Source of the DNA: Myxococcota bacterium
GTDB lineage: Bacteria > Myxococcota_A > UBA9042 > DTJE01
NCBI GenBank assembly: GCA_017994695.1
Contig: JAGOKF010000002.1
Coordinates: 21,643 to 85,642, forward strand
Reading direction: 5' to 3'
Length of the DNA stretch: 64,000 nucleotides
Below are positions 2,419 through 35,824 of the stretch, piece after piece (position 1 is the stretch's first letter; each line of letters opens with the position of its first letter). The position numbers and the translations under genes were made by a program. The notes beneath the pieces were generated by a model. The model did no database searches, was not told where the DNA came from, and saw nothing but the letters and a program-made list of their open reading frames with translations.

Positions 2419-2966
2419 GCGAAGGACCCGCGATCGGCCTGCTGGAACTGACCTCCATCGCCCGGGGGATCGTCGCCGCCGACGCGATGGCGAAGCGGGC
2501 CTCGGTGCAGGTGGTCCAGAGCCGGACGGTCTGCCCGGGGAAGTTCTACACCCTGGTCGCCGGCGACGAGGAGTCGGTCCGCCTGGCCCTCGAGACCGGC
2601 GTCCACTACGCCGGGGACTACCTCGTGGACCGCCTGGTGATCCCCCGGGTCCACGAACAGGTGCTGCCGGCGGTTCTGGCGGTCCAGCCGCTCCCCGGCC
2701 TCCTGTCCGTCGGCATCATCGAGACCTTCTCCCTGGCCGGGACGATCCTCGCGGCCGACGCGGCGTGCAAGACCGCCCCGGTCACCCTGATCGAGGTGCG
2801 CCTGGGCATGGGCCTGGGGGGCAAGGCCTATGTGACGATGACCGGGGACCAGCATGACGTCGAGGCCTCCCTGGCCGCCGGAGTCGCGGCGATCGACCCG
2901 GCCCTCCGCCTCCGGAGCGAGATCATCCCGGCCCCCCACCCGTCCCTGGGCCCGACGCTCCTGTGA
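2415..2966 (+). CDS. pduT: Tandem-BMC-domain microcompartment shell protein (BMC-T), PduT-like
   Basis: It has two BMC domains ('AIGLLELTSIARGIVAADAMAKRA...' and 'VGIIETFSLAGTILAADAACKTA...'). The first domain aligns closely with PduT, including 'SRTVCPGKFYTLVAGD', which holds the conserved pore Cys. Its ATG overlaps the pduS stop (ATGA). Confidence 0.8.
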   Translation: MSEGPAIGLLELTSIARGIVAADAMAKRASVQVVQSRTVCPGKFYTLVAGDEESVRLALETGVHYAGDYLVDRLVIPRVHEQVLPAVLAVQPLPGLLSVGIIETFSLAGTILAADAACKTAPVTLIEVRLGMGLGGKAYVTMTGDQHDVEASLAAGVAAIDPALRLRSEIIPAPHPSLGPTLL

Positions 2967-2985
2967 CCCGCCGACAAAAAGGTGC

Positions 2986-3013
2986 TTGACTTCCCAAGGT
3001 CCAGGCATACAAT
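2986..3013 (+). promoter_or_regulatory. Sigma70-type promoter for the rpsL/str-S10-spc-alpha super-operon (TTGACT-N16-TACAAT)
   Basis: The sequence is cTTGACTtcccaaggtccaggcaTACAATc, 66 bp upstream of the rpsL ATG. A GGAGG RBS sits at 3066-3070. Confidence 0.6.
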
Positions 3014-3079
3014 CTCGCCCTCGCCCCCGGACCATGTCCGCCGGGCGGTAGGTTCCAGGGCGCCAAGGGAGGCGACGGA

Positions 3080-3460
3080 ATGCCGACGATCAACCAGCTG
3101 GTCCGGAAGGGGCGTCAGCCCCCGAAATACAAGTCCAAGTCCCCGGCGATGACCGGGTGCCCCTGCCGCCGAGGCGTCTGCACCCGCGTCTACACGACGA
3201 CGCCGAAGAAGCCGAACTCGGCCATGCGGAAGGTCGCGAAGGTCCGCCTGACCAACGGGTTCGAGGTGATCGCCTACATCCCCGGCGAGGGGCACAACCT
3301 CTCCGAGCACTCCCAGGTGCTGGTCCGGGGCGGGCGCGTGAAGGACCTCCCGGGCGTCCGCTACCACATCATCCGGGGAACGATGGACACGAAGGGGGTC
3401 GATGCCCGGCGGCGCAGCCGGTCCCGCTACGGCGCGAAGCAGCCCAAGGGCGTGAAGTAG
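3080..3460 (+). CDS. rpsL: 30S ribosomal protein S12
   Basis: [12 protein letters not shown]...[18 protein letters not shown]...[21 protein letters not shown]. Confidence 0.97.
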
Positions 3461-3478
3461 CACCGAAGGAGGCACGAG

Positions 3479-3949
3479 ATGCCCAGGCGCAGGGTGGTCG
3501 AGCACCGGGAGATCGAGCCGGATCCCAAGTTCGGGGACTGGCTGGTGGCCAAGTTCATCAACTGCATGATGCACGACGGCAAGAAGGCCGTGGCGGAAAA
3601 GGTCTTCTACGAGGCGATGGACCTGATCGCCCGGAAGACCCGCGAGGATCCGCTGAAGATCTTCAAGCGGGCGGTGGAGAACGTGAAGCCCCAGGTCGAG
3701 GTGAAGTCCCGCCGGGTCGGCGGCGCCACCTACCAGGTCCCGGTGGAGATCCGGCCCGAGCGGAAGACCGCGCTGGCCATCCGCTGGATCACCTCCTACG
3801 CCCGCGGGCGATCCGAGAAGGGCATGGTGCAGAAGCTCTCGGCGGAACTGATCGACGCGTTCAACGGACGCGGCAACGCGATCAAGAAGCGGGACGACAC
3901 CCACAAGATGGCCGAGGCCAACAAGGCGTTCGCCCACTATCGCTGGTGA
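3479..3949 (+). CDS. rpsG: 30S ribosomal protein S7
   Basis: Typical S7 sequence ([20 protein letters not shown]...). It lies downstream of rpsL. Confidence 0.95.
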
Positions 3950-3966
3950 CGTCGAAGGGGATTTCC

Positions 3967-6060
3967 GTGGCCAGGGCGACCGACATCGCGGTGGTTCGCA
4001 ACATCGGCATCATGGCCCACATCGATGCCGGCAAGACCACCACGACCGAGCGGGTGCTCTACTACACGGGGGTCTCCCACCGCCTCGGCGACGTGGACGC
4101 GGGCAACACCCAGATGGACTGGATGGAGCAGGAACAGGAGCGCGGCATCACGATCACCTCCGCCGCGACCACCTGCTTCTGGCGGGACCACCAGGTCAAC
4201 ATCATCGACACTCCCGGACACGTGGACTTCACCGTCGAGGTGGAGCGCAGCCTCCGGGTGCTCGACGGGGCCATCGTGGTCTTCTGCGCGGTGGGCGGCG
4301 TCCAGCCCCAGACCGAAACGGTCTGGCGCCAGGCGAACCGCTACCGGGTGCCGCGACTGGCCTTCGTCAACAAGATGGACCGGACCGGGGCCGACTTCTG
4401 GCGATGCGTCGGGCAGATGCGCGGGCGCCTCAAGGCGCACGCCATCCCGGTGCAGATCCCCCTCGGTCGGGAGTCTGGGTTCCGAGGCGTCGTGGACCTC
4501 GTGAACCGGAGGGCCCTCGTCTGGGACAGGGACACCCTCGGCGCGGACTACTCCGTCCGCGACATCCCCACCGACTTCCTCGAGGCCGCCCAGAAGGCCC
4601 GGACCGAGTTGCTGGACACCGTGGTGGAGCAGGACGACGCGGTCCTCGAGGCCTACCTGGCCGGCCAGGAGCCCGACGCCGCGACCCTGAACCGCCTGAT
4701 CCGCCAGGGGACGCTGAAGGGCGACATCGTTCCGGTGCTCTGCGGGACCGCCTTCAAGAACAAGGGCGTGCAGCCGCTGCTGGACGCCGTGGTGGACTGG
4801 CTCCCCTCCCCGGCGGACCTGCCGCCGGTGACCGGCGTCGAGCCCTACCGGTCCAACGGCCACGTCGTCGAGGTCCGGCGGTCGGCGTCGGACGACGAGC
4901 CCTTTTGCGGGCTGGCCTTCAAACTGATGAACGACCCCTTCGTGGGCCAGCTGACCTTCGTCCGGGTTTACTCGGGGGTCCTGCGGTCCGGCGAGGCCCT
5001 GCTGAACACCAACCAGGACCGCAGGGAGCGGGCGGGGCGCCTGGTGCGCATCCACGCGAACAAACGCGAGGAGGTCCAGGAGATCCGGGCCGGCGACATC
5101 GGGGGCGTGGTGGGGCTGAAGGTCACCGTGACGGGCGACACTCTCTGCGACGCGAACCATCCCATCCGTCTCGAGTCGGTCCGGTTCCCGGAACCCGTCG
5201 TGGAGGCGGCCCTGGAGTCCGACACGAAGGGCGACGACGAGCGGCTCTTCCAGGCACTCAAGCGCCTGGCCCTGGAGGACCCCTCCTTCAAGTTCAAGGT
5301 CCACGAGGAGACCGGCCAGACCCTGATCGCCGGCATGGGGGAACTGCACCTCGAGATCCTGGTGGACCGCCTCCGGCGGGAATTCAAGGTGGAGAGCCGC
5401 ATGGGGCGCCCCCAGGTCTCCTACCGGGAGACGGTGACCCGGAGCGCCGAGGCCGATTCCCGCTATGTGAAGCAGACCGGCGGCCACGGCCAGTACGGCC
5501 ATGTGGTGATGCGCATCGACCCCCTGCCCCGGAACTCGGGCCTCCTCTTCGAGGACCGCACCGTGGGCGGCGTGATCCCGAAAGAGTACATCCCCGCCGT
5601 CGAGAAAGGGGTCCGGGAGGCCGCCCAGCTGGGCGTGCTGGCGGGCTACCCGGTGGTGGACTGCAAGGTGACCTTGCTGGACGGGTCCTACCACGAGGTG
5701 GACTCGTCGGACCTCGCGTTCCGGATCGCCGCCTCGATGGGCCTGAAGGACCTGGTGGCCCGGGCGAACCCGGTGCTGCTGGAGCCGGTGATGCTCCTCG
5801 AGGTCGAACTCCCCTCGGAGTACCTGGGGGAGGTTCTGGGGAACCTCTCGACCCGCCGGGGCCGAATCGTCCGCCTGGAGACCCAGGAGACGGGGCACCA
5901 GGTGGTGGCCGAGGTCCCCCTGGGAGAGATGTTCGGCTACGTGACCCAGCTGCGGTCCCTGACCCAGGGTCGGGGGACGCAGACGATGGAGTTTCTGCAC
6001 TACGCGCCCACCCCTCCGGCCATCCAGGCGAAGGTGGTGAGCGCGGGGAGGAGCGTCTGA
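3967..6060 (+). CDS. fusA: Elongation factor G
   Basis: It has the GTPase G1 motif '[20 protein letters not shown]'. GTG starts are possible at 3967 (preferred) or 3946 (overlapping the rpsG stop). Full-length EF-G of ~697 aa. The track ORF 3157..6060 only gets its 967 aa from out-of-context upstream sequence in the same frame. Confidence 0.93.
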
Positions 6061-6062
6061 AG

Positions 6063-6371
6063 ATGGGCATCCAGAGGATTCGCATTCGGCTGAAGGCGTA
6101 CGACCACAAGATCCTGGACCAGTCGGTGGCGGAGATCATCGCGACCGTCCGCAAGACCGACGCCACCGTCGCGGGCCCGATCCCCCTGCCGACGAAGATC
6201 AGCCGGTACACGGTGCTCCGGTCGCCGCACACCGACAAGAAGAGCCGCGAGCAGTTCGAGATCCGGACCCACAAGCGGCTGATCGACCTGCTGGACCCGT
6301 CCCAGCAGACCCTGGAGGCCCTGACGAAACTGGACCTGAGTCCGGGCGTGGACGTGGAGATCAAGGCCTGA
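6063..6371 (+). CDS. rpsJ: 30S ribosomal protein S10
   Basis: [21 protein letters not shown]...[11 protein letters not shown]... The start lies 2 nt after the fusA stop. Confidence 0.95.
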
Positions 6372-6388
6372 AGCGAGGCGAGGACACC

Positions 6389-7005
<617 letters not shown>

Positions 7006-7009
<4 letters not shown>

Positions 7010-7296
7010 AGAGCCCCTACGACGTGATTCGTCGCCCTCTCATCACCGAGAAGGCGAACATCGACAAGGAGCGGCGGAACACCTACCACTTCGAGGTCCC
7101 CCTGACGGTGGACCGGCAGGAGATCCGCCAGGCAGTCGAGGCCGTCTTCCACGTCCACGTCGAGGACGTGAGGACGATGGTGGTGCAGGGCAAGGAGCGC
7201 CGCCTGGGGCGGTTCCTGGGCCGGAAGCCGTCCTGGAAGAAGGCGATCGTCACCCTCCGGGAGGGGGAATCGATCGACATCTTCGAGGCCCGCTAG
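7006..7296 (+). CDS. rplW: 50S ribosomal protein L23
   Basis: [17 protein letters not shown]... The ATG overlaps the rplD stop. Confidence 0.93.
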
Positions 7297-7315
7297 GACA
7301 GAGAAGGAGCGCGAG

Positions 7316-8140
7316 ATGGCCATCATCAAGTTCAAACCGACCTCCCCGGGACGACGGGGCATGGAGGTGGCGGACTTCTCGGACATCACCCGGGACCGCC
7401 CCGAGAAGTCGCTCCTGGCCCCGAAGCACGAGCGGGCCGGACGGAACGTGTACGGGCGCGTGACCTCCCGCCACCGGGGCGGCGGCCACGCCCAGAAGTA
7501 CCGGGTGATCGACTTCAAGCGGGACAAGACCGGCGTGCCGGCCCGGGTCGCCCACATCGAATACGACCCGAACCGCAGCGCCCGGATCGCCCTGCTGCAT
7601 TACCGGGACGGCGAGAAGCGCTACATCCTCGCCCCCCGGGAGCTGCGGGTCGGTGACGAGGTGGTCTCGGCGGCCCACGCCGAGATCCGGCCGGGGAACT
7701 CCCTGCCCCTGAAGAACATCCCCCAGGGGACCCTGGTGCACAACATCGAGCTGAAGCCCGGTGCCGGCGGCCAGATGGTGCGGTCCGCGGGGACCTCGGC
7801 CCAGGTGATGGCCCTGGAGGGCGGCTACGCGCTGCTCCGGATGCCCTCCGGGGAACTGCGGAAGGTCCGGGAGGAATGCCGGGCGACGATCGGCGACGTC
7901 AGCAACCCGGACCACGAGAACGTCTCGATCGGCAAGGCCGGGCGGAACCGGTGGCGCGGCGTGCGGCCCCAGAGCCGCGGCGTCGTGATGAACCCCATCG
8001 ACCACCCGATGGGAGGCGGCGAGGGGAAGACCTCCGGCGGCCGCCATCCCTGCACCCCCTGGGGAAAGCCCACCAAGGGGTACAAGACGCGGCAGAACAA
8101 GCGGACCGATCACCTGATCGTGAAGCGGCGCTCGAAGTAG
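7316..8140 (+). CDS. rplB: 50S ribosomal protein L2
   Basis: [15 protein letters not shown]...GGGHAQKYR...HPMGGGEGK. Confidence 0.96.
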
Positions 8141-8153
8141 CACGGAGGACGGT

Positions 8154-8444
8154 ATGCCTCGCTCGGTGAAAAAGGGTCCTTTCGTGGACAGGCACCTGGT
8201 GGAGAAGATCGAGGCGGCCCTGCGCTCGGGCCAGAAGAAGTCCATCAAGACGTGGTCCCGGCGGAGCGTGATCCTGCCGGAGATGGTGGGCTTCAACTTC
8301 GCCGTGCACAACGGCAAGAAGTTCATCCCGGTCTTCGTCACCGAGAACATGGTGGGTCACAAGTTGGGCGAGTTCGCGCCGACCCGGACCTTCCACCAGC
8401 ACTCCGGCGACCGGAAGGGCAAGGTGGAAGGGAAGAAGAAGTGA
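8154..8444 (+). CDS. rpsS: 30S ribosomal protein S19
   Basis: [12 protein letters not shown]...[24 protein letters not shown]. Confidence 0.96.
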
Positions 8445-8454
8445 GGGGAGTGAG

Positions 8455-8799
8455 ATGGACGATCACGTCGTGAGGGCCAAGGCCCGGTACATCCGAATGG
8501 CTCCCCGCAAGGTCCGGGTGGTGGCCAACGCCATCCGGGGCAAGCGCGTGGACGAGGCGACGGCGGTGCTGGCGTTCATTCCCCGGAGGGCCGTGAGGCC
8601 CGTCACGAAGGTGCTGAACGCGGCCATCGATGCCGCCCGGCAGAAGGGTTCCTTCGACATGGACAACCTCTATGTGAAGGAGATCTTCGTGGACCAGGGA
8701 CCCTGCCTGAAGCGGCGCCTGTCCCGGGCCAGGGGCATGGCGACGCCGATCCACAAGTTCCTGAGCCATGTGACCGTCGTGCTGGGCGAGTTGGAGTAG
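8455..8799 (+). CDS. rplV: 50S ribosomal protein L22
   Basis: Typical L22 order and sequence ([19 protein letters not shown]). Confidence 0.93.
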
Positions 8800-8809
8800 G
8801 AGGGACCCC

Positions 8810-9439
8810 GTGGGCCAGAAGACGCATCCGATCGGTTTTCGGATCCCCTACGTGAAGGGGTGGAGTTCCCGTTGGTACGCGGGCCGTCACTACGGCCGGT
8901 GGGCCTACGAGGACGTGCAGATTCGGAAGACGGTCCGTGAGAAGATGGGCGCGGCGGGCATCTCCGCGGTGCACATCGAGCGCACCGCCAACAAGGTGAA
9001 GGTCTTCATCCTGGCGGCCCGCCCCGGGGTGGCCATCGGGCGAAAGAGCGAGAACATCGAGGAACTGAAGCGGACCCTGACCCGGCTGACCTCGATGGAG
9101 GTCGTGCCCTACATCCAGGAGGTCCGGAAGATCGAACTGGACGCCCAGCTGGTCGCCGAGTCGGTCGCCCAGCAGCTGGAGCGGCGGGTGTCCTTCCGCC
9201 GGGCCACCAAGCGGGCCGTGCAGCAGGCGATGAAACTGGGGGCCAAGGGGATCCGCATCCGCTGCTCCGGACGCCTGGGCGGCGCCGAGATGAGCCGGGT
9301 GCTCCAGTACCGCGAGGGCCGCGTCCCCCTCCAGACGCTCCGGGCCGACCTGGACTACGGCCTGGCCGAGGCGCGGACGACCTACGGCGTGATCGGGGTG
9401 AAGACCTGGATCTACAAGGGTGACATTCTGAAGAAGTGA
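8810..9439 (+). CDS. rpsC: 30S ribosomal protein S3
   Basis: [12 protein letters not shown]... KH domain. Confidence 0.95.
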
Positions 9440-9491
9440 TCCCGGGCCGGCGGCCGAAAGGGGCCGCGCCCCCGGGAGGGAGGAGGCGACG

Positions 9492-9908
9492 ATGCTGTCT
9501 CCGGCGAGAACGAAGTGGCGCAAGCAGCAGAAGGGCCGGATGCGGGGGACCGCCTGGCGGGGAAGCGAGGTCTCCTTCGGGGAGTTCGCGCTGCAGGCGA
9601 CGGAGTGCGGATGGATCACGGCCCGGCAGATCGAGGCGGCCCGTATCGCCATCAACCGCCACGTGAAGCGCGGTGCCCAGCTGTGGATCCGGGTCTTCCC
9701 CGACAAGCCCATTTCCAAGAAGCCCCTGGAGACCCGCATGGGTCGCGGCAAGGGCGCTCCCGAGGAGTGGGTCGCCGTGATCCGGCCGGGGCGGGTGCTC
9801 TACGAGATCGAGGGCGTGGACGAGGCGACCGCCCGGGAGTGCTTCCGGCTGGCGGCGATGAAACTGCCGATCCACACCCAGGTGCTGAAGCGGGGGGAAA
9901 TCCGATGA
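9492..9908 (+). CDS. rplP: 50S ribosomal protein L16
   Basis: [19 protein letters not shown]...[11 protein letters not shown]. Confidence 0.95.
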
Positions 9909-10114
9909 AGTCCCTGAAGGCCGAGGAATTGCGGGCCCTGTCGGACGAGGATCTGGTCCGTCGGGAGAACGAGCACCGGGAGAGCCTGTTCAAGTTCCGG
10001 ATGCGGCTGGCCACGGGCCAGATGAGCAAGATGGCCGACATCCAGGCCACTCGCCGGAACCTGGCCAGGATCCTGACCGAACAGAACCGCCGGCGAAAGG
10101 CCGCGCAGCAGTGA
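9905..10114 (+). CDS. rpmC: 50S ribosomal protein L29
   Basis: [39 protein letters not shown]. The ATG overlaps the rplP stop. Confidence 0.9.
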
Positions 10115-10407
10115 GGGCAGCGATGGAAGAGCAGCAGAAGGCCCCGAAGGTCCGTCATCAGCGCAACCTGATCGGGCGGGTGACCAGCGTGTCCGGTGCG
10201 AAGACGGTGGTGGTCGCCGTTTCCCGGAGGTACCAGCACCCGACCTTCAAGAAGTACGTCACGAGGGTCCGGCACTACACCGCCCACGACGAGAAGAGCG
10301 CCTGCGGCGTGGGGGACCAGGTCCGGATCGTCGAAAGCCGGCCGCTGTCGGCGACCAAGCGCTGGCGGGTGGCCGAACTGGTCCAGAAGTCGCGGCTGGC
10401 CGAGTGA
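10111..10407 (+). CDS. rpsQ: 30S ribosomal protein S17
   Basis: ...NLIGRVTSVSGAKTVVVAVSRRYQHPTFKKYV... A GTG at 10111 overlaps the rpmC stop; alternatively an ATG at 10123. Confidence 0.93.
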   Translation: MRAAMEEQQKAPKVRHQRNLIGRVTSVSGAKTVVVAVSRRYQHPTFKKYVTRVRHYTAHDEKSACGVGDQVRIVESRPLSATKRWRVAELVQKSRLAE

Positions 10408-10442: not shown

Positions 10443-10811
10443 ATGGTACAGCAAGAGAGCTACCTGGTTTCGGCCGACAACTCCGGGGCGAAACTCCTGC
10501 AGGTGATCCGCGTGATCGGGGGATCGACCCGCCGCTACGCCTCCGTGGGGGACATGGTCGTCGCGACGGTGAAGGAGGCCCTGCCCCGGTCGAAGGTCAA
10601 GAAGGGCGAGGTCGTGAAGGCCGTGATCGTCCGGACCGCCAAGGAGGTGGGCCGGTCCGACGGCACCTTCATCCGCTTCGATGAGAACGCCGCGGTGCTG
10701 ATCAACCAGGCGATGGAGCCCATCGGGACCCGCATCTTCGGGCCGGTGGCCCGGGAACTCCGGGCCGCGCGCTTCCTGAAGATCGTCTCGCTGGCACCGG
10801 AGGTGCTGTGA
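10443..10811 (+). CDS. rplN: 50S ribosomal protein L14
   Basis: [17 protein letters not shown]... Confidence 0.96.
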
Positions 10812-11137
10812 TGAACAAGATCCGCAAGAACGACGAGGTCGTGGTCCTCCGGGGCAGGAATGCCGGGTCCAAGGGGAAGGTCCTGGAGGTGGACGGCAAG
10901 TCCGGCCGCGCGGTGGTCGAGGGGGTGAACCTGGTGAAGAAGCACGCGAAGCGCAAGACCAAGCGCCTCGAGGCGGGAATCCAGCAGAAGCCCGCGCCCC
11001 TGCCCCTGTCGGCCCTGAGCCTGGTGAGCCGGAAGGACGGCAAGGCGGTCCGGGTCCACTTCGAACTGCGGGAGGGCGCCGGCGGAAAGACCCGGAAGGT
11101 GCGCGTCGCCTCGAGGACCGGCGAGGTGTTCGACTAG
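10808..11137 (+). CDS. rplX: 50S ribosomal protein L24
   Basis: [31 protein letters not shown] motif. Confidence 0.93.
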
Positions 11138-11169
11138 GAGTCCAGGCGGTTTCGCCAGGGGAGACGGAG

Positions 11170-11709
11170 ATGACCAGACTGCAGAAGAAATACGAGGAGG
11201 AAGTGGTTCCGGCCCTGATGAGGCAGTTCGCCTACCGGAACCGCTTCCAGGTGCCCCGCCTGGTCAAGGTGACCTTGAACATGGGCCTGGGCGAGGCGAC
11301 GCAGAACCCGAAGATCATCGAGAACTCGGTGGAGGAACTGGGCCGGATCACGGGGCAGCGTCCCGTGGTGACGCGGTGCCGGAAGTCCATCGCCGCGTTC
11401 AAGGTCCGCAAGGGCAACACCGTCGGCGTCTCGGTCACCCTGCGGGGGGACCGGATGTGGGAGTTCCTGGACCGGCTGGTCAACGTGGCGCTCCCCCGCG
11501 TCCGGGACTTCCGGGGCGTGTCCACGAAGGCCTTCGACGGCCACGGGGACTACACGCTGGGCCTCCGGGAGCAGATCATCTTCCCCGAGGTGGACTACGA
11601 CAAGGTCGAGAAGCTGAAGGGGATGAACATCACGGTAGGAACCAGCGCCCGGAACGACGAGGAGGCTCTGGCGCTGCTGAAGGGCCTGGGGATGCCCTTC
11701 CGGAAGTGA
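11170..11709 (+). CDS. rplE: 50S ribosomal protein L5
   Basis: [20 protein letters not shown]... Confidence 0.95.
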
Positions 11710-11728
11710 AGCATCAGGAGGTGCAGAC

Positions 11729-11914
11729 GTGGCGAAGACGTCTCTGAGAATCAAGGCCAAGCGGAAGCCGAAGTTCCAGGTGCGGACATACAACCGTTGT
11801 CCGCTCTGCGGTCGTCCGAGGGCCTTTCTCCGGAAGTTCAACATGTGCCGTATCTGCTTCCGGAATCTGGCGTTGCGGGGAGACCTGCCCGGCGTCGTCA
11901 AGGCCAGCTGGTAA
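11729..11914 (+). CDS. rpsZ: 30S ribosomal protein S14, zinc-binding type Z
   Basis: 61 aa with CPLCGRP...CRIC (C-x2-C...C-x2-C). Confidence 0.92.
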
Positions 11915-11932
11915 GGCGAGGAGGGTCGGGAG

Positions 11933-12328
11933 ATGACGACTGATCCCATCGGGGACATGCTGACGCGGATTCGGAACGCCCTCCAGGCGGGACACGCGGA
12001 TCTGGAGATCCCGTCGTCCAACCTGAAGAAGCGGATTGCCGAGATCCTGAAGGAACAGGGCTTCATCGAGGACTTCTCGGTCCTCGAGGATCGCACCCAG
12101 GGCATCCTGAAGATCTACCTGAAGTACGTCGCGCCGAAGCGGGGAGCCATCGCCGGGATCCGGCGGGAGAGCAAGCCCGGGCGGCGGATCTACGTCGGGA
12201 AGAAGGACATCCCCCGGGTCCGGCGAGGCATGGGCCTGGCGATCCTCTCCACTCCCCAGGGAGTGATGGCCGACCAGGAGGCCCGCAAGAGAGGGATCGG
12301 CGGCGAATTGCTGTTGACCGTCTGGTGA
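11933..12328 (+). CDS. rpsH: 30S ribosomal protein S8
   Basis: MTTDPIGDMLTRIRNA... Confidence 0.95.
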   Translation: MTTDPIGDMLTRIRNALQAGHADLEIPSSNLKKRIAEILKEQGFIEDFSVLEDRTQGILKIYLKYVAPKRGAIAGIRRESKPGRRIYVGKKDIPRVRRGMGLAILSTPQGVMADQEARKRGIGGELLLTVW

Positions 12329-12410
12329 GGCACCCGGGGCGCCGGTGATTCCGGCTCCCGGTGGACGCCGGCCCCCGGGTCGGCGCGAGCGGTGAACCGA
12401 GGAGGCGAAC

Positions 12411-12950
12411 GTGTCGCGAATCGGAAAGAAACCCATCCCGGTACCGGCCGGCGTGGAGGTTCGTCTGGAACCCCCGACCGTGACGGTGAAAGGCCCCCTG
12501 GGAACCCTGTCCCGGAGTCTCCGGGGCGTCACGGTGGCCCGCGAGGGCAGCGTGCTGGTGGTGCAGCCGGACCCGGCGGCCCCGGACCGGGCGAAGATGC
12601 ACGGGCTGATGCGGACCCTGGTGGCCAACATGGTCGAGGGAGTCAGCACCGGGTTCACCCGGGTCCTGACCATCGCCGGAACCGGCTACAAGGCCGAGGG
12701 CGGCGGCCAGGAGCTGACCCTCTACCTGGGCTACTCGAAGCCCGTGGTCTTCCCGCTCCCGGACGGCGTCACCGGCACCGTGGAAGACAAGGGGCTCAAG
12801 ATCACGCTGAAGAGCCGGGACAAGGAACTGCTCGGGGACACGGCCGCCCGGCTCCGGGCCGTCCGGCCGGTGGAGCCCTACAAGGGCAAGGGGGTCGCCT
12901 ACCTGGGCGAGAAGGTGCGCAGGAAGGCTGGCAAGTCCGGCACGAAGTAG
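12411..12950 (+). CDS. rplF: 50S ribosomal protein L6
   Basis: [17 protein letters not shown]... Confidence 0.95.
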
Positions 12951-12966
12951 CGTCGGGGAGGGTCAA

Positions 12967-13341
12967 GTGGAGATTCGGAACGCCCAGATTCGGAGACAGG
13001 CCCGGTTGAACCGGAAGGCCCGCATCCGGAAGAGGATCGTCGGCACCCCGGAACGGCCCCGGCTGGTGATCTTCCGGAGCGCGCGCCACATCTCCTGCCA
13101 GGTCATCGACGACCAGGCGGGTCGCACGCTGTGCGCGGCGTCCAGCGAGGGCAAGGCCTTCGCCGAGGCGGCCGGCAAGGTCGCCAAGACCGAGGCGGCG
13201 AAGAAGGTGGGGGCCCTGATCGCGGAGCGTTGCAAGGCCGCCGGGATCGAGGCGGTGGTCTTCGACCGGAACGGGTTCCTGTATCACGGCCGGGTGGCGG
13301 CCCTGGCGGACGCGGCCCGGGAGGCCGGCCTCAAGTTCTAG
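12967..13341 (+). CDS. rplR: 50S ribosomal protein L18
   Basis: GTG start. ...[18 protein letters not shown]... Confidence 0.92.
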
Positions 13342-13351
13342 GAGGAACGCG

Positions 13352-13852
13352 GTGGCATACGAAGAAGTCGAAGAGAAACTGGAGTTCACCGAGCACATCG
13401 TCCACCTGAGCCGCGTGGCCAAGGTGGTGAAGGGAGGACGCCGGTTCTCCTTCGCCGCGCTGGTGGTCATCGGCAACGGGGAGGGCCTGGTGGGGTTCGG
13501 ACTGGGCAAGGCCCAGGAGGTCCCGGAGGCGATCCGGAAAGGCGGCGAGCAGGCGAAGAAGAACATGATCCGCGTGCCGCTGTTCGGGACCACGATCCCC
13601 CACGAGGTCGAGGGACGCTTCGGCGCGGGACGGGTGCTGCTGAAGCCCGCCGTGCCCGGCACCGGGGTGATCGCCGGCGGCGCCGCCCGGGCCGTGCTGG
13701 AGGCCGCGGGGGTGAGGGACGTCCTGTCCAAGAGCCTGGGCACCCGGAATCCCCACAACGTCGTTCGGGCGACCGTCGTCGCCTTGAGGGGCCTGACGTC
13801 GAAGGACATGGCCCTCGAAAAGCGCGGCATCCGCCAGGAGGTAGTGGAATGA
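13352..13852 (+). CDS. rpsE: 30S ribosomal protein S5
   Basis: ...[37 protein letters not shown]... Confidence 0.95.
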
Positions 13853-14319
13853 AGGAGCTTTCTCGCCTCTCGCCGCAGCCCGGTTCGGTGACCGCCCGGA
13901 AGCGGGTGGGTCGCGGCCGCGGCTCCGGGCTGGGCAAGACCTCCGGCAGGGGCCACAAGGGAACCGGCGCCCGGACCGGGAAGGGCCGACCCCCGTGGTT
14001 CGAGGGCGGCCAGATGCCGCTGCAGCGGCGCCTCCCCAAGAAGGGGTTCACGCCCCTGGTGCGCAAGGAGTTCGCCATCGTGAACACCGGGGCCCTCGAG
14101 ATCTTCCCCGAGGGGACCCGGGTGGACCCGGCGACCCTGCGGGCGGCCGGCCTGGTGCGCCAGGTCCGGGACGGCGTCAAGATCCTGGGAAGCGGGGACC
14201 TGACGCGCCGGCTGGACGTGGTGGCCCACGCCTTCAGCGACACGGCCCGGAAAAAGATCGAGGCGGCCGGCGGCACCGTGACGGCCATCCTGGAAACGAA
14301 GGAAGAGACCGGGGCGTAG
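13849..14319 (+). CDS. rplO: 50S ribosomal protein L15
   Basis: ...[20 protein letters not shown]... The ATG overlaps the rpsE stop, so there is no L30 gene in between. Confidence 0.94.
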
Positions 14320-14340
14320 CGCCCCGCGGGGAGGTTCGAC

Positions 14341-15675
14341 GTGGCCAACAGCCTCGAAGGACTGGGCAAGGTCCCCGAGTTGCGGAAACGGCTGCTCTAC
14401 ACCCTGGGCATGCTCGCGGTGTACCGCCTCGGGATCTTCGTCACGGTCCCCGGTGTGGACCGCGACATCATCTCGAACTACGTCCGGTTCGGACAGACGG
14501 GACTGCTGGGACTGTTCGACATGTTCTCTGGGGGCGCGATGGGCCAGATGTCCATCTTCGCCCTGGGGGTCATGCCCTACATCAGCGCCTCGATCATCTT
14601 CCAGCTGCTGGCGGTGGTCGTCCCCGCCCTGGAGCGTCTCCAGAAGGAGGGCGACGCGGGCCGGCGCAAGATCAACCAGTACACCCGGTACGCCACGGTG
14701 GCCCTCTCGGCCATCCAGGGCGTCGCCATCGCCGTGTGGCTCCAGTCGCTGAACAGCCAGGCCGGGACCGAGAACGTGGTCCGGATCAGTTCCTTCCTGT
14801 TCAAGTTCCTGACGGTCCTCTCGCTGACCACCGGGACGATGTTCCTGATGTGGCTCGGGGAGTCCATCACCGACCGGGGGATCGGCAACGGCATCTCTCT
14901 GATCATCTTCGCGGGCATCGTGGCCCGGCTGCCCGACGCGGTGGTCCAGACCTTCAGCCTCTCCACCCTCCAGGGCGGGAAGCTGGAGCCCCTGACCCTG
15001 CTGGTCATCGGGGCGCTGATCGTCGCCACCATCGGGTTCATCGTGTTCTTCGAACGGGCCCAGCGGCGCATCCCGGTGCAGTACGCGAAGAAGGTCGTGG
15101 GGCGGAAGCTCTACGGCGGCCAGACCACCTATCTGCCCCTGAAGGTCAACACCGCCGGCGTCATTCCCCCGATCTTCGCCTCCTCGATCCTGATGTTCCC
15201 GGCCACCCTCTCGGGGCTGTTCCCCGGGGCCACCTGGGTCACCTGGATGCAGAACGCCCTGGGACCCGGCGGCACGCTGTACAACACGCTCTACGTGGTG
15301 ATGATCATCTTCTTCGCCTTCTTCTACACCGCGGTCACCTTCAACCCGGTGGACGTCGCGGACAACCTGAAGAAGAACGGGGGATTCGTGCCGGGGATCC
15401 GGGCCGGCAAGGCGACCGCCGACTACATCGACCGGGTGCTCTCCCGGGTGACCGTCGGGGGCGCCATCTACATCGCGGCCATCTGCGTCCTCCCGACCAT
15501 TCTGCAGCAGAAGTTCCAGGTGCCCTTCTACTTCGGCGGCACCTCGCTGCTGATCGTGGTCGGCGTCGCGCTGGACACGGCGGGGCAGATCGAGGCGCAT
15601 CTGATCAGCCGGTCCTACGAAGGCTTCGCGGGGGCTCACGGACCCCGGGTCCGTGGACGGAGGGACTACCAGTGA
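14341..15675 (+). CDS. secY: Preprotein translocase subunit SecY
   Basis: 444 aa with 10 transmembrane segments, in the canonical position after rplO. Confidence 0.95.
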
Positions 15676-16340
15676 CCGACGGTCCCCGCTACCGCCTGAT
15701 CCTGTTCGGTCCCCCCGGCGTGGGAAAGGGGACCCAGGCCCGGATGCTCCAGGAGCGCCTGGGGATCTGCGCCATCGCCACCGGGGACCTGCTGCGGGAG
15801 GAGGTGGCCCGGAAGTCGCCCCTGGGACAGGAGGCGGCCCGCTACATGGAGAGCGGATTGCTGGTCCCCGACCAGGTCGTCATCGGCATGGTGAAGGGGC
15901 GGATCCAGGCCCAGGGCGGCTGCGGGGCCGGCTTCATCCTCGACGGCTTCCCCCGCACCGTGGACCAGGCGGAGGCCCTCCGGGCCGCCGATATCGGCAT
16001 CGACCTGGTGGTCCACCTCCGGGTGCCGGAGGAGGCCATCATCCGCCGGCTCGCGGGGCGGAAAATCTGCCCTTCCTGTGGTCGGGTCTTTCATGTAGAA
16101 TACGCCCCCCCGGTGGATGGCGCGCACTGCGACTCCTGCGGCGCCGCGCTGATCACCCGGGAGGACGACCAGGAGGCGACGGTCCGCGCGCGCCTCCGGG
16201 TCTACGAGGAGAAGACGATGCCGCTGCTCCGGTACTACCGGGAGCAGGGCCTGCTGGCCACCGTGGACGGGATGCAGGATCCCGGGCACGTGCAGGAGGA
16301 CATCCTGACCCTGTTGCGCCAGACGAGGACGGAGTCATGA
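15672..16340 (+). CDS. adk: Adenylate kinase
   Basis: P-loop '[13 protein letters not shown]' and a Zn-lid 'CPSCG...CDSCG'. The GTG overlaps the secY stop. Confidence 0.93.
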
Positions 16341-16558
16341 CGCCGAAGGAAGAGGCCATCGAGGTCGAAGGGACGGTCGTGGAGGCGCTGCCGAACGCGA
16401 CGTTCCGGGTGGAACTGGCCAACGGCCATCGGGTGCTGGCTCACGTGTGCGGCAAGATGCGGATGCACTTCATCCGCATCCTCCCGGGGGACAAGGTGAA
16501 GGTGGAACTTTCCCCGTACGACGTGACCCGGGGACGGATCACCTTCCGGGTGCGGTGA
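16337..16558 (+). CDS. infA: Translation initiation factor IF-1
   Basis: [54 protein letters not shown]. Confidence 0.95.
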
Positions 16559-16568
16559 GGAGGGGACC

Positions 16569-16682
16569 ATGAAGGTAAAGGCCTCGGTGAAGAAGATCTG
16601 TGAGAAGTGCAAGGTCATCAAGCGTCGCGGGGTCGTGCGGGTGATCTGCGAGAATCCCCGGCACAAGCAGCGCCAGGGCTGA
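16569..16682 (+). CDS. rpmJ: 50S ribosomal protein L36
   Basis: Hand-translated as [37 protein letters not shown]. It is too short to appear in the ORF track. Confidence 0.9.
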
Positions 16683-16696
16683 GGACGGGAGGAACC

Positions 16697-17065
16697 ATGG
16701 CTCGTATTGCAGGCGTCGATCTCCCCAGGAAGAAGCCGGTGGGCATCGCCCTCCGGTACATCTACGGCATCGGGCCCACCAACGCCCTCCGCGTCCTGGC
16801 CCAGGCCGGTGTGTCCCCCAGGACGCGGACCGACGACCTCACCGAGGGCGAGGTCGCCCGCATCCGGGAGGTGCTCGATGCGGGGTTCAAGGTGGAGGGA
16901 GACCTCCGCCGGGAAGTTGCCGCGAACATCAAGGTGCTGATGGACATGGGGTGCTACCGGGGGCTCCGCCACCGGAAGGGCCTTCCGGTCCGGGGCCAGC
17001 GGACGCACACCAATGCCAGGACCCGCAAGGGGCGCCGGGGCGCCACGATCAAGAAGAAGAAGTAG
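16697..17065 (+). CDS. rpsM: 30S ribosomal protein S13
   Basis: [26 protein letters not shown]... Confidence 0.95.
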
Positions 17066-17077
17066 TCGCAGCAGGAG

Positions 17078-17473
17078 GTGGCCGATATGGCCAAGGCGAA
17101 GACGGGAAAGAAGAAGATCCGCAAGGACGTGCCGCTGGGGGTCGTGCACATCAACTCGACCTTCAACAACACGATCGTGACCATCACGGACCCCACGGGG
17201 GCGGTGGTCGCTTGGTCCTCCGCCGGTCGGCGGGGATTCAAGGGTTCCCGGAAGTCCACGCCCTTCGCGGCCCAGCTGGCGGCGGAGGACGCGGCGAAGC
17301 GGGCCCAGGAAGTGGGCATGAAGTCGGTGCAGGTCCTCGTGAAGGGCCCCGGAGCCGGGCGAGAGTCGGCGGTCAGGGCCCTGGCCGCCGCCGGCCTGCG
17401 GGTCACCTACATCCGGGACGTGACGCCGGTTCCGCACAACGGTTGTCGGCCGCCGAAGCGTCGGCGCGTCTGA
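17078..17473 (+). CDS. rpsK: 30S ribosomal protein S11
   Basis: ...[21 protein letters not shown]... Confidence 0.95.
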
Positions 17474-17486
17474 TCAGGAGGGAGTC

Positions 17487-18146
17487 GTGGCCAGGTACAC
17501 GGACGGACTTTGCCGGATCTGTCGGCGGGAAGGGATGAAGCTCTTCCTCAAGGGAGAGCGGTGCCATTCGGACAAGTGCGCGTTCCAGCACCGGGCCTAT
17601 GCCCCCGGCCAGCACGGACAGGCCAGGCGCAAGCCCACGCCCTACGCCACCCAGCTGCGGGAGAAGCAGAAGGTGCGCCGCCTCTACGGGATGCTGGAAG
17701 GGCAGTTCCGGCGCTTCTTCGAGCACGCCAACGCGATGCGGGGCAACACCGGGGACAACCTCCTGCGCCTGTTGGAGTCCCGCCTGGACTCGGTGGTCTA
17801 CCGCTGCGGCTTCGGGGCCAGCCGGGGGGACGCCCGCCAGCTGGTGAGCCACGGCCACATCCTGGTGAACGGCCGCCGGGTCACGATCCCCTCCTTCGTC
17901 GTGAAGGCCGGGGACGTCGTGGAGGTGCGGTCCCGTTCCGCCAGCCTGAAGCGGGTCCAGGAGGCGCTGGCCATGGCGTCGAGGACCCGTTCCCCCCGGT
18001 GGTTGGAGGTCGATCCCGCGAAGGCCCGGGCGGTGGTCAAGTCGCTGCCCGAAGCCGAGGACCTGAGGGACCTGATTCCGGAGGCAGAGACCGAAGGGAA
18101 GCCGGCCATCCGCCAGGAGTTGATCGTCGAGATCTACTCGAAGTGA
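17487..18146 (+). CDS. rpsD: 30S ribosomal protein S4
   Basis: MARYTDGLCRICRREGMKLFLKGERC... Confidence 0.94.
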   Translation: MARYTDGLCRICRREGMKLFLKGERCHSDKCAFQHRAYAPGQHGQARRKPTPYATQLREKQKVRRLYGMLEGQFRRFFEHANAMRGNTGDNLLRLLESRLDSVVYRCGFGASRGDARQLVSHGHILVNGRRVTIPSFVVKAGDVVEVRSRSASLKRVQEALAMASRTRSPRWLEVDPAKARAVVKSLPEAEDLRDLIPEAETEGKPAIRQELIVEIYSK

Positions 18147-18190
18147 CCGGCTGTCGGTGACGCAGAGAGGGTTCCCACAGGAGGCACCAG

Positions 18191-19231
18191 ATGCAGAAGG
18201 TCTCGGAAAAGAACTGGCGGGAGTTGATCCGTCCCCGGTCGGTCCTGGTCGAGAAGGAGTCCCTGACCAACCGCTACGGGAAGTTCATTGCCGAGCCCCT
18301 GGAGCGGGGCTTCGGAATCACCCTGGGCAACAGCCTGCGGCGCATCCTCCTGTCCACCATCCGCGGCGCCGCGGTGACCTCGGTTCGCATCGACGGCGTG
18401 ATGCACGAGTTCTCGACGATTCCCGAGGTCTACGAGGACGTGACCGAGATCGTCCTGAACCTGAAGTCCCTGGACCTGGCGCTGGAAACGGAGGAGCAGA
18501 AACAGGTCCACGTGCACCTGGAGGGCGAGCGGACCGTGACCGGAGCCGACCTGTTCCAGGGGCCCGAGGTCACCTGCCTGAACCCCCACCACGTGATCTG
18601 CACGATGGGACCCGGCGCGGTGCTGGACATGGACCTCACGGTCCGGGCCGGCTACGGGTACCACCCGGCCGAGCGGAACAAGGACCCCAACGCCCCCCTG
18701 GGCACCATTCCCATCGACTCGATCTTCAGCCCGATCCGGAAGGTGAACTACCGGGTCACCAACGCCCGGGTCGGGCAGCAGACGGACTATGACCGCCTGA
18801 CCATCGAGGTCTGGACCAACGGCGCCGTGGAGCCCCCGGACGCGTTGGCCATCGCGGCGAAGATCCTGAAGGAGCAGGCCCAGGTCTTCATCCACTTCGA
18901 CGAGGGGGCCGAGGATCAGATCCCCCAGGTCACCCTGCCCTCCCAGGAGGCCGACGGGTCCGTGGCCACCGTCACCGACGCCGCCACCTCCGATGTCCTG
19001 TTCCGTCCCGTCGAGGAACTGGAACTGTCGGTCCGGGCCCAGAACTGCCTCCAGACCGCCGGGATCCGCCTGGTGGGGGACCTGGTGCAGAAGACCGAGG
19101 GCGAACTGCTGAAGACCCGGAGATTCGGACGGAAGTCCCTGAAGGAGATCCAGGACGCCCTCCAGGACCTGGGGCTGTCGCTGGGCATGCGCCTGGAGAA
19201 CTTCGACCCGAGCCTGCGCTCGGAGTCATGA
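18191..19231 (+). CDS. rpoA: DNA-directed RNA polymerase subunit alpha
   Basis: 346 aa with N-terminal and C-terminal alpha domains, in the canonical position. Confidence 0.95.
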
Positions 19232-19243
19232 CGGGAGAGGATC

Positions 19244-19648
19244 ATGCGACACAACCGAAAGCAGGTGAAACTGAACCGGACCGCGTCCCATCGCCGGGCA
19301 CTGTTCCGCAATCTCCTGTCCTCCCTGTTCCTCCACGGACGCATCGTCACCACCGAGGCGAAGGCCAAGGAGGTCAAGCGGCGGGCGGACATCCTGATCG
19401 GGTCGGCCCGGAAGGGCGGCCTGCACCAGCGGCGCCTGGCGGCGGCCCAGCTGTTCGGAGCCGAGGCGGTCCAGGCCCTCTTCGACCGGTGGGCCCCCAG
19501 CTTCCCGGACCGGGTCAGCGGCTTCACCCGCGCGGTGAAACTGGGATTCCGGCAGGGGGACGCCTCCCAGATGGTGCTGGTGGAAATCCTTGGGGCCGCC
19601 CCCGCCGCGGGGGAGGCGCCGGAGGCGCCGCAGGCGGAGAAGGACTGA
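19244..19648 (+). CDS. rplQ: 50S ribosomal protein L17
   Basis: MRHNRKQVKLNRTASHRRALFRNL... Confidence 0.95.
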   Translation: MRHNRKQVKLNRTASHRRALFRNLLSSLFLHGRIVTTEAKAKEVKRRADILIGSARKGGLHQRRLAAAQLFGAEAVQALFDRWAPSFPDRVSGFTRAVKLGFRQGDASQMVLVEILGAAPAAGEAPEAPQAEKD

Positions 19649-19651
19649 TCG

Positions 19652-19686
19652 CCCCGCCCGGAGCGGGGATCGGCCGGTAGGCCGGC
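19652..19686 (+). terminator. Possible weak intrinsic terminator or attenuator: two GC-rich hairpins after rplQ
   Basis: ccccgc-ccgga-gcgggg, then gccgg-tagg-ccggc. There is no real U-tract, as is usual in a high-GC genome. Confidence 0.2.
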
Positions 19687-19818
19687 AGCCCCCGGACCCT
19701 TGCCGGCCCGGGGAGAACGCACGCTCCCAACATCCACCGTGGCCGGGAGTTCCGGCCGGTTGGGGAGCGGAGGTTGGAGGCCCCGAAGGGCTCTCCATGG
19801 AAACGGAGGATCGACCCC

Positions 19819-20634
19819 ATGCCCGACATCAAGCTGCGTGATCTCCTGGAAGCCGGATGCCACTTCGGCCACCGGACACAGCGTTGGAACCCGAAGATGA
19901 AGCCGTACATCTTCGGCGCCCGGAACGGCATCCACATCGTGGACCTGCAGAAGACCCAGCGCCTGCTGAAGGACGCCCTGAACTTCCTCAGCCGCAAGGT
20001 GGCCGAAGGGGAGACGGTGCTGTTCGTGGGCACCAAGCCCCAGGCGCAGCTGGTGGTCGAGGAGGAGGCCCGGAGGGCCCGGATGCCCTTCGTGACGAAC
20101 CGCTGGCTCGGCGGCACGCTGACGAACTTCGTCACCCTGCGGAAGTCCCTGGAGCGCCTGAACGAGATCGACGCGCTGCTGGCCGAGGGCAGCGTCGAGC
20201 GCCTCCAGAAGAAGGAGGTCGTCCGGCTCGAGAAGGAGCAGGCCCGGATGCTGAAGAACCTCCGGGGTCTCCGGGGGCTCTCGGGGCTGCCGGGGGCGAT
20301 GGTCGTGGTGGACTCCACCCGGGAGCGGATCGCCATCCGCGAGGCCAACCGGGCGGGCATCCCCGTCGTCGCCGTGGTGGACACCAACGGGGACCCGGAC
20401 AACATCCAGTACGTCGTGCCGGCCAACGACGACGCCATCCGGTCGATCCGGCTGACCGTCGGCGCCTTTGCCGATGCCTGCCTGGAGGCGGCCGCCCTGC
20501 GTCACCGGGGCGGAGAGGACGGCACCTGGGAGGCGCCTGCCGTCCAGGAAGGCCCGCGTCCCGACGTCGTCTTCCGCGGGCGGGGAGTCCCGGCCGCGCC
20601 GGCCCCCGAGGACGTGTCGAACACCGACCAGTAG
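19819..20634 (+). CDS. rpsB: 30S ribosomal protein S2
   Basis: MPDIKLRDLLEAGCHFGHRTQRWNPKM... The internal ATG at 19819 is preferred over the ORF-track start at 19774. Confidence 0.93.
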   Translation: MPDIKLRDLLEAGCHFGHRTQRWNPKMKPYIFGARNGIHIVDLQKTQRLLKDALNFLSRKVAEGETVLFVGTKPQAQLVVEEEARRARMPFVTNRWLGGTLTNFVTLRKSLERLNEIDALLAEGSVERLQKKEVVRLEKEQARMLKNLRGLRGLSGLPGAMVVVDSTRERIAIREANRAGIPVVAVVDTNGDPDNIQYVVPANDDAIRSIRLTVGAFADACLEAAALRHRGGEDGTWEAPAVQEGPRPDVVFRGRGVPAAPAPEDVSNTDQ

Positions 20635-20689
20635 GCACTGGTCGTTCCCCGAACGCAATCCGTTCCCAGGTGGACAAGGAGGATCGAAG

Positions 20690-21289
20690 ATGGGTTACAC
20701 GGCGCAACAGGTGAAGGAACTGCGGGAAATGACCGGCGCGGGAATCCTGGACTGCAAGAACGCCCTGGCCGAGACCGACGGCGACATGGCGAAGGCGGTC
20801 GAGGTCCTCCGGAAGCGCAACGCCGCCGTCGCGGTGAAGAAGCTCTCCCGGGAGGCGAAGGACGGGCTGGTCCAGACCTACGTCCACGGCGAGGGCCGCA
20901 TCGGCGTGCTGGTCGAGGTCAACAGCGAGACGGACTTCGTCGCCCGGTCCGAGGACTTCCGGAACTACGTGAAGGAGATCTGCCTGCAGATCGCCGCGAT
21001 GGCGCCCCAGTACGTCACCCGGGAGGAGATCCCGGCGGCCGAGGTGGAAAAGCAGAAGGAGATCTTCCTGGCCCAGATGGGGGAGACCCGGAAGCCCCCG
21101 GAGGTCCTCGCCAAGATCATCGAGGGAAAACTGGGCAAGTGGTACTCGGAGGTCTGCCTGATGGACCAGGCGTACATCCGGGACGACAGCAAGACGATCC
21201 GCGATCTGCAGAACGAGATCGTGGCCCGCTGCGGCGAGAACATCCGCGTGCGGCGATTCGCCCGCTATGCCCTCGGCGAAGGTCTCTGA
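20690..21289 (+). CDS. tsf: Elongation factor Ts (short ~200-aa form)
   Basis: MGYTAQQVKELREMTGAGILDCKNALAETDGDMAKAVEVLRK. Confidence 0.92.
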   Translation: MGYTAQQVKELREMTGAGILDCKNALAETDGDMAKAVEVLRKRNAAVAVKKLSREAKDGLVQTYVHGEGRIGVLVEVNSETDFVARSEDFRNYVKEICLQIAAMAPQYVTREEIPAAEVEKQKEIFLAQMGETRKPPEVLAKIIEGKLGKWYSEVCLMDQAYIRDDSKTIRDLQNEIVARCGENIRVRRFARYALGEGL

Positions 21290-21311
21290 TATCCTCCCCG
21301 GGTCCCTGACG

Positions 21312-22073
21312 ATGAGGGAGGCCCCGATGCCCCCGGATTCCGCTTCCCAGGGCCCCCGTTTCCGTCGCGTATTGCTGAAGCTTTCCGGCGAGGCCCTCCA
21401 GGGGCATCGTTCGGCCGGCGTGGACCCCGAGGTGGTGACCGCCTTCGCCCAGGAGGTGAAGGGGGCCCGGGAGATGGGGGCGCAGATGGCGCTGGTCATC
21501 GGCGGAGGCAACTACTTCCGGGGCATCTCGGAGGTCGGCCGCCAGTTCGACCGGGCCACCGCCGACACCGTGGGGATGCTGGCCACGGTGATGAACGCGC
21601 TGGTCTTCTGCGACGTGCTGGAGCGCCTGGGCCAGCCGACCCGGGTGATGACGGCCCTCCAGATGCCCCAGGTGGCCGAGCCGTTCATCCGGCGGCGGGC
21701 CATCCGGCACATGGAGAAGGGCCGGGTGGTGCTGCTGGCGGCGGGCACCGGCCACCCGTTCTTCAGCACCGACACCGCCGCCGTGCTCCGGGCCCTGGAG
21801 ATCCAGGCCGACGCGGTCCTCAAGGGCACCAAGGTGGATGGCGTCTACACCGCGGACCCCGCCCGCCATGCCGACGCGGTGCGCTACGACCGGGTCTCCT
21901 TCTCCCGGGTGCTGGAGGAGGGGCTGGGGGTGATGGACGCGACCGCCATCGCTCTCTGCCGGGAGCATCGGCTGCCGCTGGTCGTCTTCGACATCCGCCG
22001 GCCAGGCAACCTGGTGCGCCTGCTCTCCGGGGAATCCATCGGGACGGAAGTCATTCAGGAGGAAGAGCCATGA
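21312..22073 (+). CDS. pyrH: UMP kinase
   Basis: ...RVLLKLSGEAL...IGGGNYFRG... Aspartokinase-fold nucleotide kinase. Confidence 0.9.
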   Translation: MREAPMPPDSASQGPRFRRVLLKLSGEALQGHRSAGVDPEVVTAFAQEVKGAREMGAQMALVIGGGNYFRGISEVGRQFDRATADTVGMLATVMNALVFCDVLERLGQPTRVMTALQMPQVAEPFIRRRAIRHMEKGRVVLLAAGTGHPFFSTDTAAVLRALEIQADAVLKGTKVDGVYTADPARHADAVRYDRVSFSRVLEEGLGVMDATAIALCREHRLPLVVFDIRRPGNLVRLLSGESIGTEVIQEEEP

Positions 22074-33854: not shown

Positions 33855-34253
33855 TCAGAACTTCTTCACCTGGATGTGGATGGTCTGGTCCGCCGTGGTC
33901 TCCTCCAGGGCCAGCGTGTATCCCCGCTTCTCCAGTTCCTGCTTCACCTTCCGGTGGGTGTACTTCTGGGTCACGAGGCGCACGAAGGCCTGCTCGTCGA
34001 GCCCCCGGGTGGTCTCGACCCCCCACCAGTCGGCGATGAACTGGACCCCCTGGGGACCCACTCGAACGCCCACGTCGTAGGTCTTGCTGACGTGGATCAC
34101 CAGGTCCGCCTCGGTGGTCTGTTTCTGGTACCCCCGGACCTTCAGCCGCTGGCCCTCGGTGGCCTCGGTGAACGCGAATCCCAGGTCGTGGAGGGCCTGC
34201 TTCAGCGTCACGAGGTCGTGGATCTTCGTCTGGACAGTGGTGAAATGGGACAT
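33855..34253 (-). CDS. DUF1257 (Ycf35-like) family protein
   Basis: The DUF1257-like N-terminus is MSHFTTVQTKIHDLVTLKQALHDLGF... Confidence 0.65.
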   Translation of the reverse strand: MSHFTTVQTKIHDLVTLKQALHDLGFAFTEATEGQRLKVRGYQKQTTEADLVIHVSKTYDVGVRVGPQGVQFIADWWGVETTRGLDEQAFVRLVTQKYTHRKVKQELEKRGYTLALEETTADQTIHIQVKKF

Positions 34254-34262
34254 GATCTTCCC

Positions 34263-35824
<1,562 letters not shown>

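Follow-up and report, generated by a model that had tools for sequence, protein, structure and literature searches.

Where is uL3 encoded in a genome whose ribosomal-protein cluster runs straight from rpsJ (uS10) to rplD (uL4)? The question is raised by a 64,000-nt stretch of a contig from a Myxococcota bacterium (hereafter, the window), for which an earlier note had pointed out that no rplC lies between the end of the S10 gene at position 6371 and the start of the uL4 gene at position 6389, and had attributed this either to a relocation of the gene or to an assembly problem.

The coordinates of the junction proved to be exact. The rpsJ gene (6063-6371, + strand) is full length, encoding a protein of 102 aa which matches Pfam Ribosomal_S10 over residues 7-101 (E=1e-36), and ends with a TGA stop codon at 6369-6371. 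The rplD gene follows on the same strand at 6389-7009, and its 206-aa product is indeed uL4 and not uL3, as shown by the Pfam Ribosomal_L4 match over residues 17-201 (E=7.2e-58). The two genes are thus separated by a spacer of 17 nt (6372-6388, + strand; agcgaggcgaggacacc) at the position that constitutes the rplC slot of other bacteria, and 17 nt leave no room for an rplC gene of about 630 nt. The spacer includes a Shine-Dalgarno-like GAGG located 5 nt 5' of the rplD ATG, and its core, cgaggcgagg, is kept in the nearest relatives (loci L007 and L014).

No uL3 was detected in the 64-kb window, either by tblastn with the E. coli uL3 as query (best E=0.67) or by a profile HMM of 71 uL3 sequences, run with the --max option on six-frame ORFs of at least 40 aa (best E=1.4). 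This negative result is meaningful, because the same E. coli query detects uL3, at 42-57% identity, in every one of the 73 outgroup loci for which DNA upstream of rplD was present. These loci derive from a scan of one genome per GTDB species with the uL4 alignment of the clade, which returned 80 loci that were then searched for uL3 by tblastn. The six closest to the window, named Myxococcota, Deltaproteobacteria, Myxococcales or 'Anaeromyxobacteraceae' bacterium, showed no uL3 at the junction or in the flanking sequence fetched with it, which extended up to 10 kb in either direction. The 73 other loci with upstream DNA, belonging to Desulfobacterota, Acidobacteriota, Nitrospirota, Firmicutes, Bacteroidota, Chloroflexota, Actinobacteria, Alphaproteobacteria and others, all showed the order rpsJ-rplC-rplD. 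The same canonical order was observed in three additional controls, namely Geothermobacter ehrlichii, Candidatus Tharpella aukensis and a MAG (locus L103) carrying the uL4 protein P0066. These data bear out the claim that rplC normally occupies the slot between rpsJ and rplD. In addition, with all 73 outgroup loci and all three controls canonical, versus 12 out of 12 related lineages, that of the window among them, without rplC at this position, the absence of the gene from its slot is far beyond chance.

The search was extended beyond the window on both sides. In the 3.6 kb upstream of it, available on an identical contig (L001), rplC was not found, and the gene table of about 9 kb past its end (L098, reached via Ffh), which includes nuo genes and DsbA among others, has no Ribosomal_L3 entry. 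Moreover, tblastn and the 71-sequence HMM found no uL3 in 19 loci of the clade, each taken with 10 kb on either side, the best match being one of E=0.006 in the EF-G region of a single relative. The N-terminal uL3 stretches of the sister lineages yield the near-universal peptides KK[VL]GMTQ and GH[CF]KKAG.

An assembly artefact, in which a segment of about 650 bp with rplC was collapsed or deleted when the contig was put together, would account for the junction in a trivial way, and mis-joined contigs are in principle a possible fault of any short-read metagenome assembly; nothing specific to this locus was found in its favour. On the contrary, the exact uL4 protein of the window is encoded on contigs of at least six independent assemblies (ENA ERZ27257506, ERZ925092 and ERZ795061; JGI 3300028760 and 3300006387; Logan SRR31392928), obtained from different samples with different assemblers, all of which show S10 followed by L4, and the DNA from 6250 to 6500 is 100% identical in all six. 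The same junction is present in 11 divergent lineages, including one represented by a pilon-polished contig of 4.63 Mb, as well as in the finished genome of Myxococcus xanthus DK1622. Finally, rplC occurs in a single copy and is not repetitive, so that nothing would make it collapse. We regard such an artefact as vanishingly improbable, and the assembly-problem reading of the earlier note as effectively refuted.

The relatives of the window make it clear that the junction is shared over a considerable evolutionary depth. In lineages whose uL4 is 71, 58, 55, 51 and 50% identical to that of the window, rpsJ lies directly 5' of rplD, and the order rpsJ then rplD likewise holds in relatives at 80, 78, 72, 65, 62, 59 and 58% identity over concatenated ribosomal proteins. 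The rpsJ-rplD spacers in 11 related lineages measure 12-84 nt and contain no remnant of rplC. The source names of the genomes of this clade are Myxococcota, Myxococcales, Bradymonadia or Deltaproteobacteria bacterium, and one of them, Deltaproteobacteria bacterium ADurb.Bin058, comes from an anaerobic digester. The closest uL4 and EF-Tu matches listed included no cultured organism, and a profile search with the deep-branch uL4 gave, among the matches listed, only MAG names.

The most extensive of these relatives is the 4.63-Mb contig mentioned above (ENA ERZ28548085), presumably assembled from long reads, given that it was pilon-polished. It carries the gene order tufB-secE-nusG-rplK-rplA-rplJ-rplL-rpoB-rpoC-rpsL-rpsG-fusA-tufA-rpsJ-rplD, continuing to rpsE-rpmD-rplO-secY, in which only rplC is missing. 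Two further observations were made on this contig. Its rplD is split into two overlapping ORFs (L095, 11603-12221) and is intact in a near-identical short-read contig (L097), so that the split is probably a residual long-read frameshift. Furthermore, its RpoC (1439 aa) shows a precomputed Pfam RRM_1 match between Rpb1_3 segments (L094 19436-21194 / L095 2241-6560), an unusual insertion for a bacterial beta-prime subunit.

The distribution of the trait was then placed on trees. When eight ribosomal proteins were concatenated for a neighbour-joining tree (71 taxa, 1318 columns), the loci without rplC formed one group. A second tree, built from seven proteins with Kimura distances (36 taxa, 1185 columns) and including the 4.63-Mb relative and the three canonical controls, supported the monophyly of the rplC-less set with 173 of 200 bootstraps, and placed Geothermobacter plus the pair formed by L103 and Tharpella as its sister; both trees are distance-based, and uL4 similarity guided the choice of their loci. 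Over the tree proteins, identity to the window falls to about 58% in the deepest rplC-less branches, which are as far from it as the canonical outgroups. Taken together, a single clade and such distant deepest branches indicate that the change is old and happened once in this sample. A threshold of uL4 identity was considered as a predictor of the trait and rejected: the uL4 P0066 of L103 is 52% identical to that of the window, above some rplC-less lineages, and yet its locus is canonical. The trait therefore tracks phylogeny and not a similarity cut-off.

In conclusion, the loss of rplC from its slot has a single origin within the sampled loci, and the rplC-less junction is real and ordinary for its lineage. 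The absence was rightly called unusual as far as bacteria in general are concerned, among which it is rare; within this lineage it is the ordinary inherited state.

A finished genome of a cultured bacterium offers a direct view of the same arrangement. According to the gene tables in the supplement to Muñoz-Dorado et al. 2019 (PMC6791715), the S10 gene of M. xanthus DK1622 (MXAN_3299, 3854626-3854934) is followed by those for L4 (MXAN_3300, 3854988-3855611), L23 (MXAN_3301, 3855608-3855901), L2 (MXAN_3302, 3855936-3856781) and S19 (MXAN_3303, 3856791-3857078), with a gap of 53 nt between S10 and L4 and no rplC in it. In the same tables, L3 is encoded on the forward strand by MXAN_3370 (3913660-3914304), a separate gene 58.7 kb downstream of rpsJ, which lies between the hypothetical gene MXAN_3368, 177 nt away, and nfsA (MXAN_3371), 324 nt away, and is expressed, with RPKM values of about 700-2700 (PMC6791715). 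The locus tags tell the same story: MXAN_3298 is EF-Tu (PMC12004946) and MXAN_3303 is rpsS (PMC10313047), so that the numbering is one tag short of what the canonical order would need. Having both the same junction and a separate L3 gene, M. xanthus documents in a finished cultured genome the relocation that had been suspected for the window, so that this part of the earlier proposal holds, if by an indirect route. The M. xanthus arrangement may well stem from the same event as that of the window, judging from the source taxonomy labels and from the shared rare character.

On these grounds we consider it highly probable that the junction reflects a real, inherited gene order, in which rplC left the rpsJ-rplD slot in the ancestor of the clade and is now encoded elsewhere. 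Specifically, the gene would have been removed from the slot in the common ancestor of a deep clade labelled Myxococcota, leaving the remaining cluster intact, and uL3 would be supplied in trans from an rplC copy elsewhere on the chromosome, as it is in M. xanthus. That the window's own genome carries such a copy is suggested by the M. xanthus precedent together with the universality of uL3, a protein that, to our knowledge, no bacterium lacks. If uL3 comes from a transcription unit of its own, its amount relative to the other ribosomal proteins would have to be set independently.

A candidate location, beside tuf or within the rplKAJL-rpoBC region, was examined in the 4.63-Mb relative and rejected. 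Both of its tuf loci, reached with the EF-Tu of a clade member as query, are without rplC, and the gene was not found in the 38 kb from tufB to secY.

The lack of an rplC gene in these 38 kb, and in about 77 kb around the cluster of the window's species, would also be expected if uL3 had truly been lost from the lineage of the window, or from the surrounding clade of uncultured anaerobic-digester bacteria, leaving either no gene for it or a non-homologous protein in its place. The stretch inspected, however, amounts to only about 2% of a genome of 3-4 Mb. Moreover, uL3 is universal and adjoins the peptidyl-transferase centre, and M. xanthus, with the same rpsJ-rplD junction, both encodes and expresses its L3 (MXAN_3370). 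We hold a genuine loss, with or without a substitute, to be extremely improbable.

A different question is by which route rplC left its slot. For ribosomal-protein genes, a known route is a duplication after which one copy is lost, and a second rplC may have been gained elsewhere, by duplication or by horizontal transfer, before the operon copy was deleted. The excision is clean, with spacers of 12-84 nt and no rplC remnant, and the rplC of M. xanthus stands apart from both its neighbours (by 177 and 324 nt), in unrelated surroundings beside the nfs sporulation operon. Both features are consistent with such a displacement, and both fit a cut-and-paste transfer of the original gene equally well. 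The displacement departs from the inherited relocation favoured here in its mechanism only and not in the present-day state; we rate it as unlikely.

The rest of the cluster is in textbook order, as had been stated, and 10 of the 11 S10-operon genes keep both their order and their common strand. The genes of this array all lie on the + strand. Upstream of rpsJ are rpsL (uS12; 3080-3460; Pfam Ribosom_S12_S23, E=4.7e-40), rpsG (uS7; 3479-3949; Ribosomal_S7, E=5.9e-67) and fusA (3946-6060), the last assigned from the EF-G Pfam domains on the gene call of the identical contig L001. Downstream of rplD come rplW (uL23; 7006-7296; Ribosomal_L23, E=9.2e-32) and rplB (uL2; 7316-8140; Ribosomal_L2_N and Ribosomal_L2_C), followed at 8154-10407 by rpsS, rplV, rpsC, rplP, rpmC and rpsQ in canonical order, as assigned from the ORFs and from the Pfam families of L001. 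The genes of the spc and alpha operons (10443-19650) are contiguous with those of the S10 operon. They comprise rplN, rplX, rplE, rpsN, rpsH, rplF, rplR, rpsE, rplO, secY, adk, infA, rpmJ and rpsM, based on the ORFs and on the L001 gene table, which ends inside rpsM, and then, within the same interval, rpsK, rpsD, rpoA and rplQ, named from ORF position and canonical order only.

The stop codon of fusA lies 2 nt before the rpsJ ATG (6058-6065), and no tuf gene is found between the two, since tblastn with the E. coli EF-Tu matched only the GTPase domain of EF-G. This shows that the str and S10 operons are fused in the window; in the deep-branch relatives L013 and L095, tuf is kept between fusA and rpsJ. 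A candidate promoter was identified 5' of rpsL at 2986-3013 (+ strand; TTGACT-16 nt-TACAAT, 10 of 12 consensus positions matched), a consensus match that is the sole sigma-70-like one in the region 2900-8200, where 0.2 would be expected from shuffled sequences. No terminator-like site was detected on the + strand of this same region. A search with Rfam at the gathering threshold found no ribosomal leader in the window, where only a tRNA was matched. As far as can be read from the sequence, the window cluster, from rpsL-rpsG-fusA-rpsJ-rplD-rplW-rplB through the spc and alpha genes, probably forms one long transcription unit, and the candidate promoter would drive a fused str-S10-spc(-alpha) transcript. 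Within it, translation of rplD would start from its own Shine-Dalgarno sequence, the GAGG of the spacer.

Several other features of this region deserve mention in their own right. No rpmD gene (uL30) separates rpsE from rplO, the two overlapping by 4 nt (13352-14319), and tblastn with the E. coli L30 returned nothing in the window. The core clade and L017 also lack rpmD; it occurs in L019 and L095, which are deep branches, and in those outgroup loci that reach that far. Directly after the alpha-operon region, at 19681-22073, are rpsB, tsf and a pyrH-type amino-acid-kinase gene, indicating that another translation operon has joined the ribosomal super-cluster. Directly 5' of rpsL, at 1087-2966, a PduS/RnfC-like flavoprotein (Complex1_51K, SLBB, Fer4 and RnfC_N) is encoded together with a shell protein with tandem BMC domains. 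This pair occupies the same place in L007, a relative with only 78% ribosomal-protein identity, and no further microcompartment genes were seen near it. Farther away, on the - strand at 33858-35867, genes for a DUF1257 protein and an AAA+ ATPase lie beside two small ORFs without family matches.

Given the match to M. xanthus DK1622, the window represents a further member of an arrangement already contained in public annotation. Our literature searches found no explicit description of the missing rplC, though the M. xanthus annotation has shown it for years. The biological weight of the finding is small, as the ribosome would still receive uL3 from a gene elsewhere. Its practical value lies in the fact that an rplC-less rpsJ-rplD junction, with a single origin in the sample, could serve as a rare-genomic-change marker for deep uncultured 'Deltaproteobacteria' or Myxococcota genomes. 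Where phylogenies and quality checks expect one scaffold to carry the 16 syntenic ribosomal proteins, L3 will always be missing from the set in this group, and this does not mean that the genomes are incomplete; annotators and assembly curators should accordingly not flag the junction as an error.

Among known systems, the closest counterpart is the S10 region of M. xanthus (MXAN_3296-3303). In both genomes, a short non-coding stretch (17 nt in the window, 53 nt in M. xanthus) leads from rpsJ directly to rplD-rplW-rplB-rpsS, rplC lies outside a cluster of otherwise canonical order, and the phylum label is the same. The two differ in that M. xanthus retains tuf between fusA and rpsJ, which the window does not. 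Moreover, whereas the M. xanthus rplC is found 58.7 kb downstream on the same strand, the window has no rplC over the 57.6 kb that follow rpsJ, and the gene table for about 9 kb past its end lists none, so that the site of the gene here must differ from that of M. xanthus, at least in distance. The genomes are also of different size, that of M. xanthus being 9.1 Mb and the one considered here much smaller, to judge from the contigs of its relatives (3.2-4.6 Mb).

When compared with the canonical S10 operon of the E. coli type (rpsJ-rplC-rplD-rplW-rplB-rpsS-rplV-rpsC-rplP-rpmC-rpsQ), the window likewise has rpsJ at the head of the block, contiguity with the spc and alpha operons, and ten of the eleven genes with order and strand unchanged; it differs in the absence of the second gene, rplC. 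It also differs in the absence of a leader region 5' of rpsJ. An S10 leader that responds to L4 is known from Gammaproteobacteria, and in the window, where fusA ends 2 nt before rpsJ, there is no place for one.

Finally, in cyanobacteria, plastids and archaea, S10 lies apart, together with the str/EF-Tu genes, and L3-L4-L23 open the large cluster. The boundary between rpsJ and rplC is thus a known evolutionary breakpoint, and in this respect the pattern resembles that of the window. There, however, it is rpsJ that leaves, while rplC stays with rplD; here rpsJ stays and only rplC is gone, an outcome which requires two breakpoints flanking a single gene.
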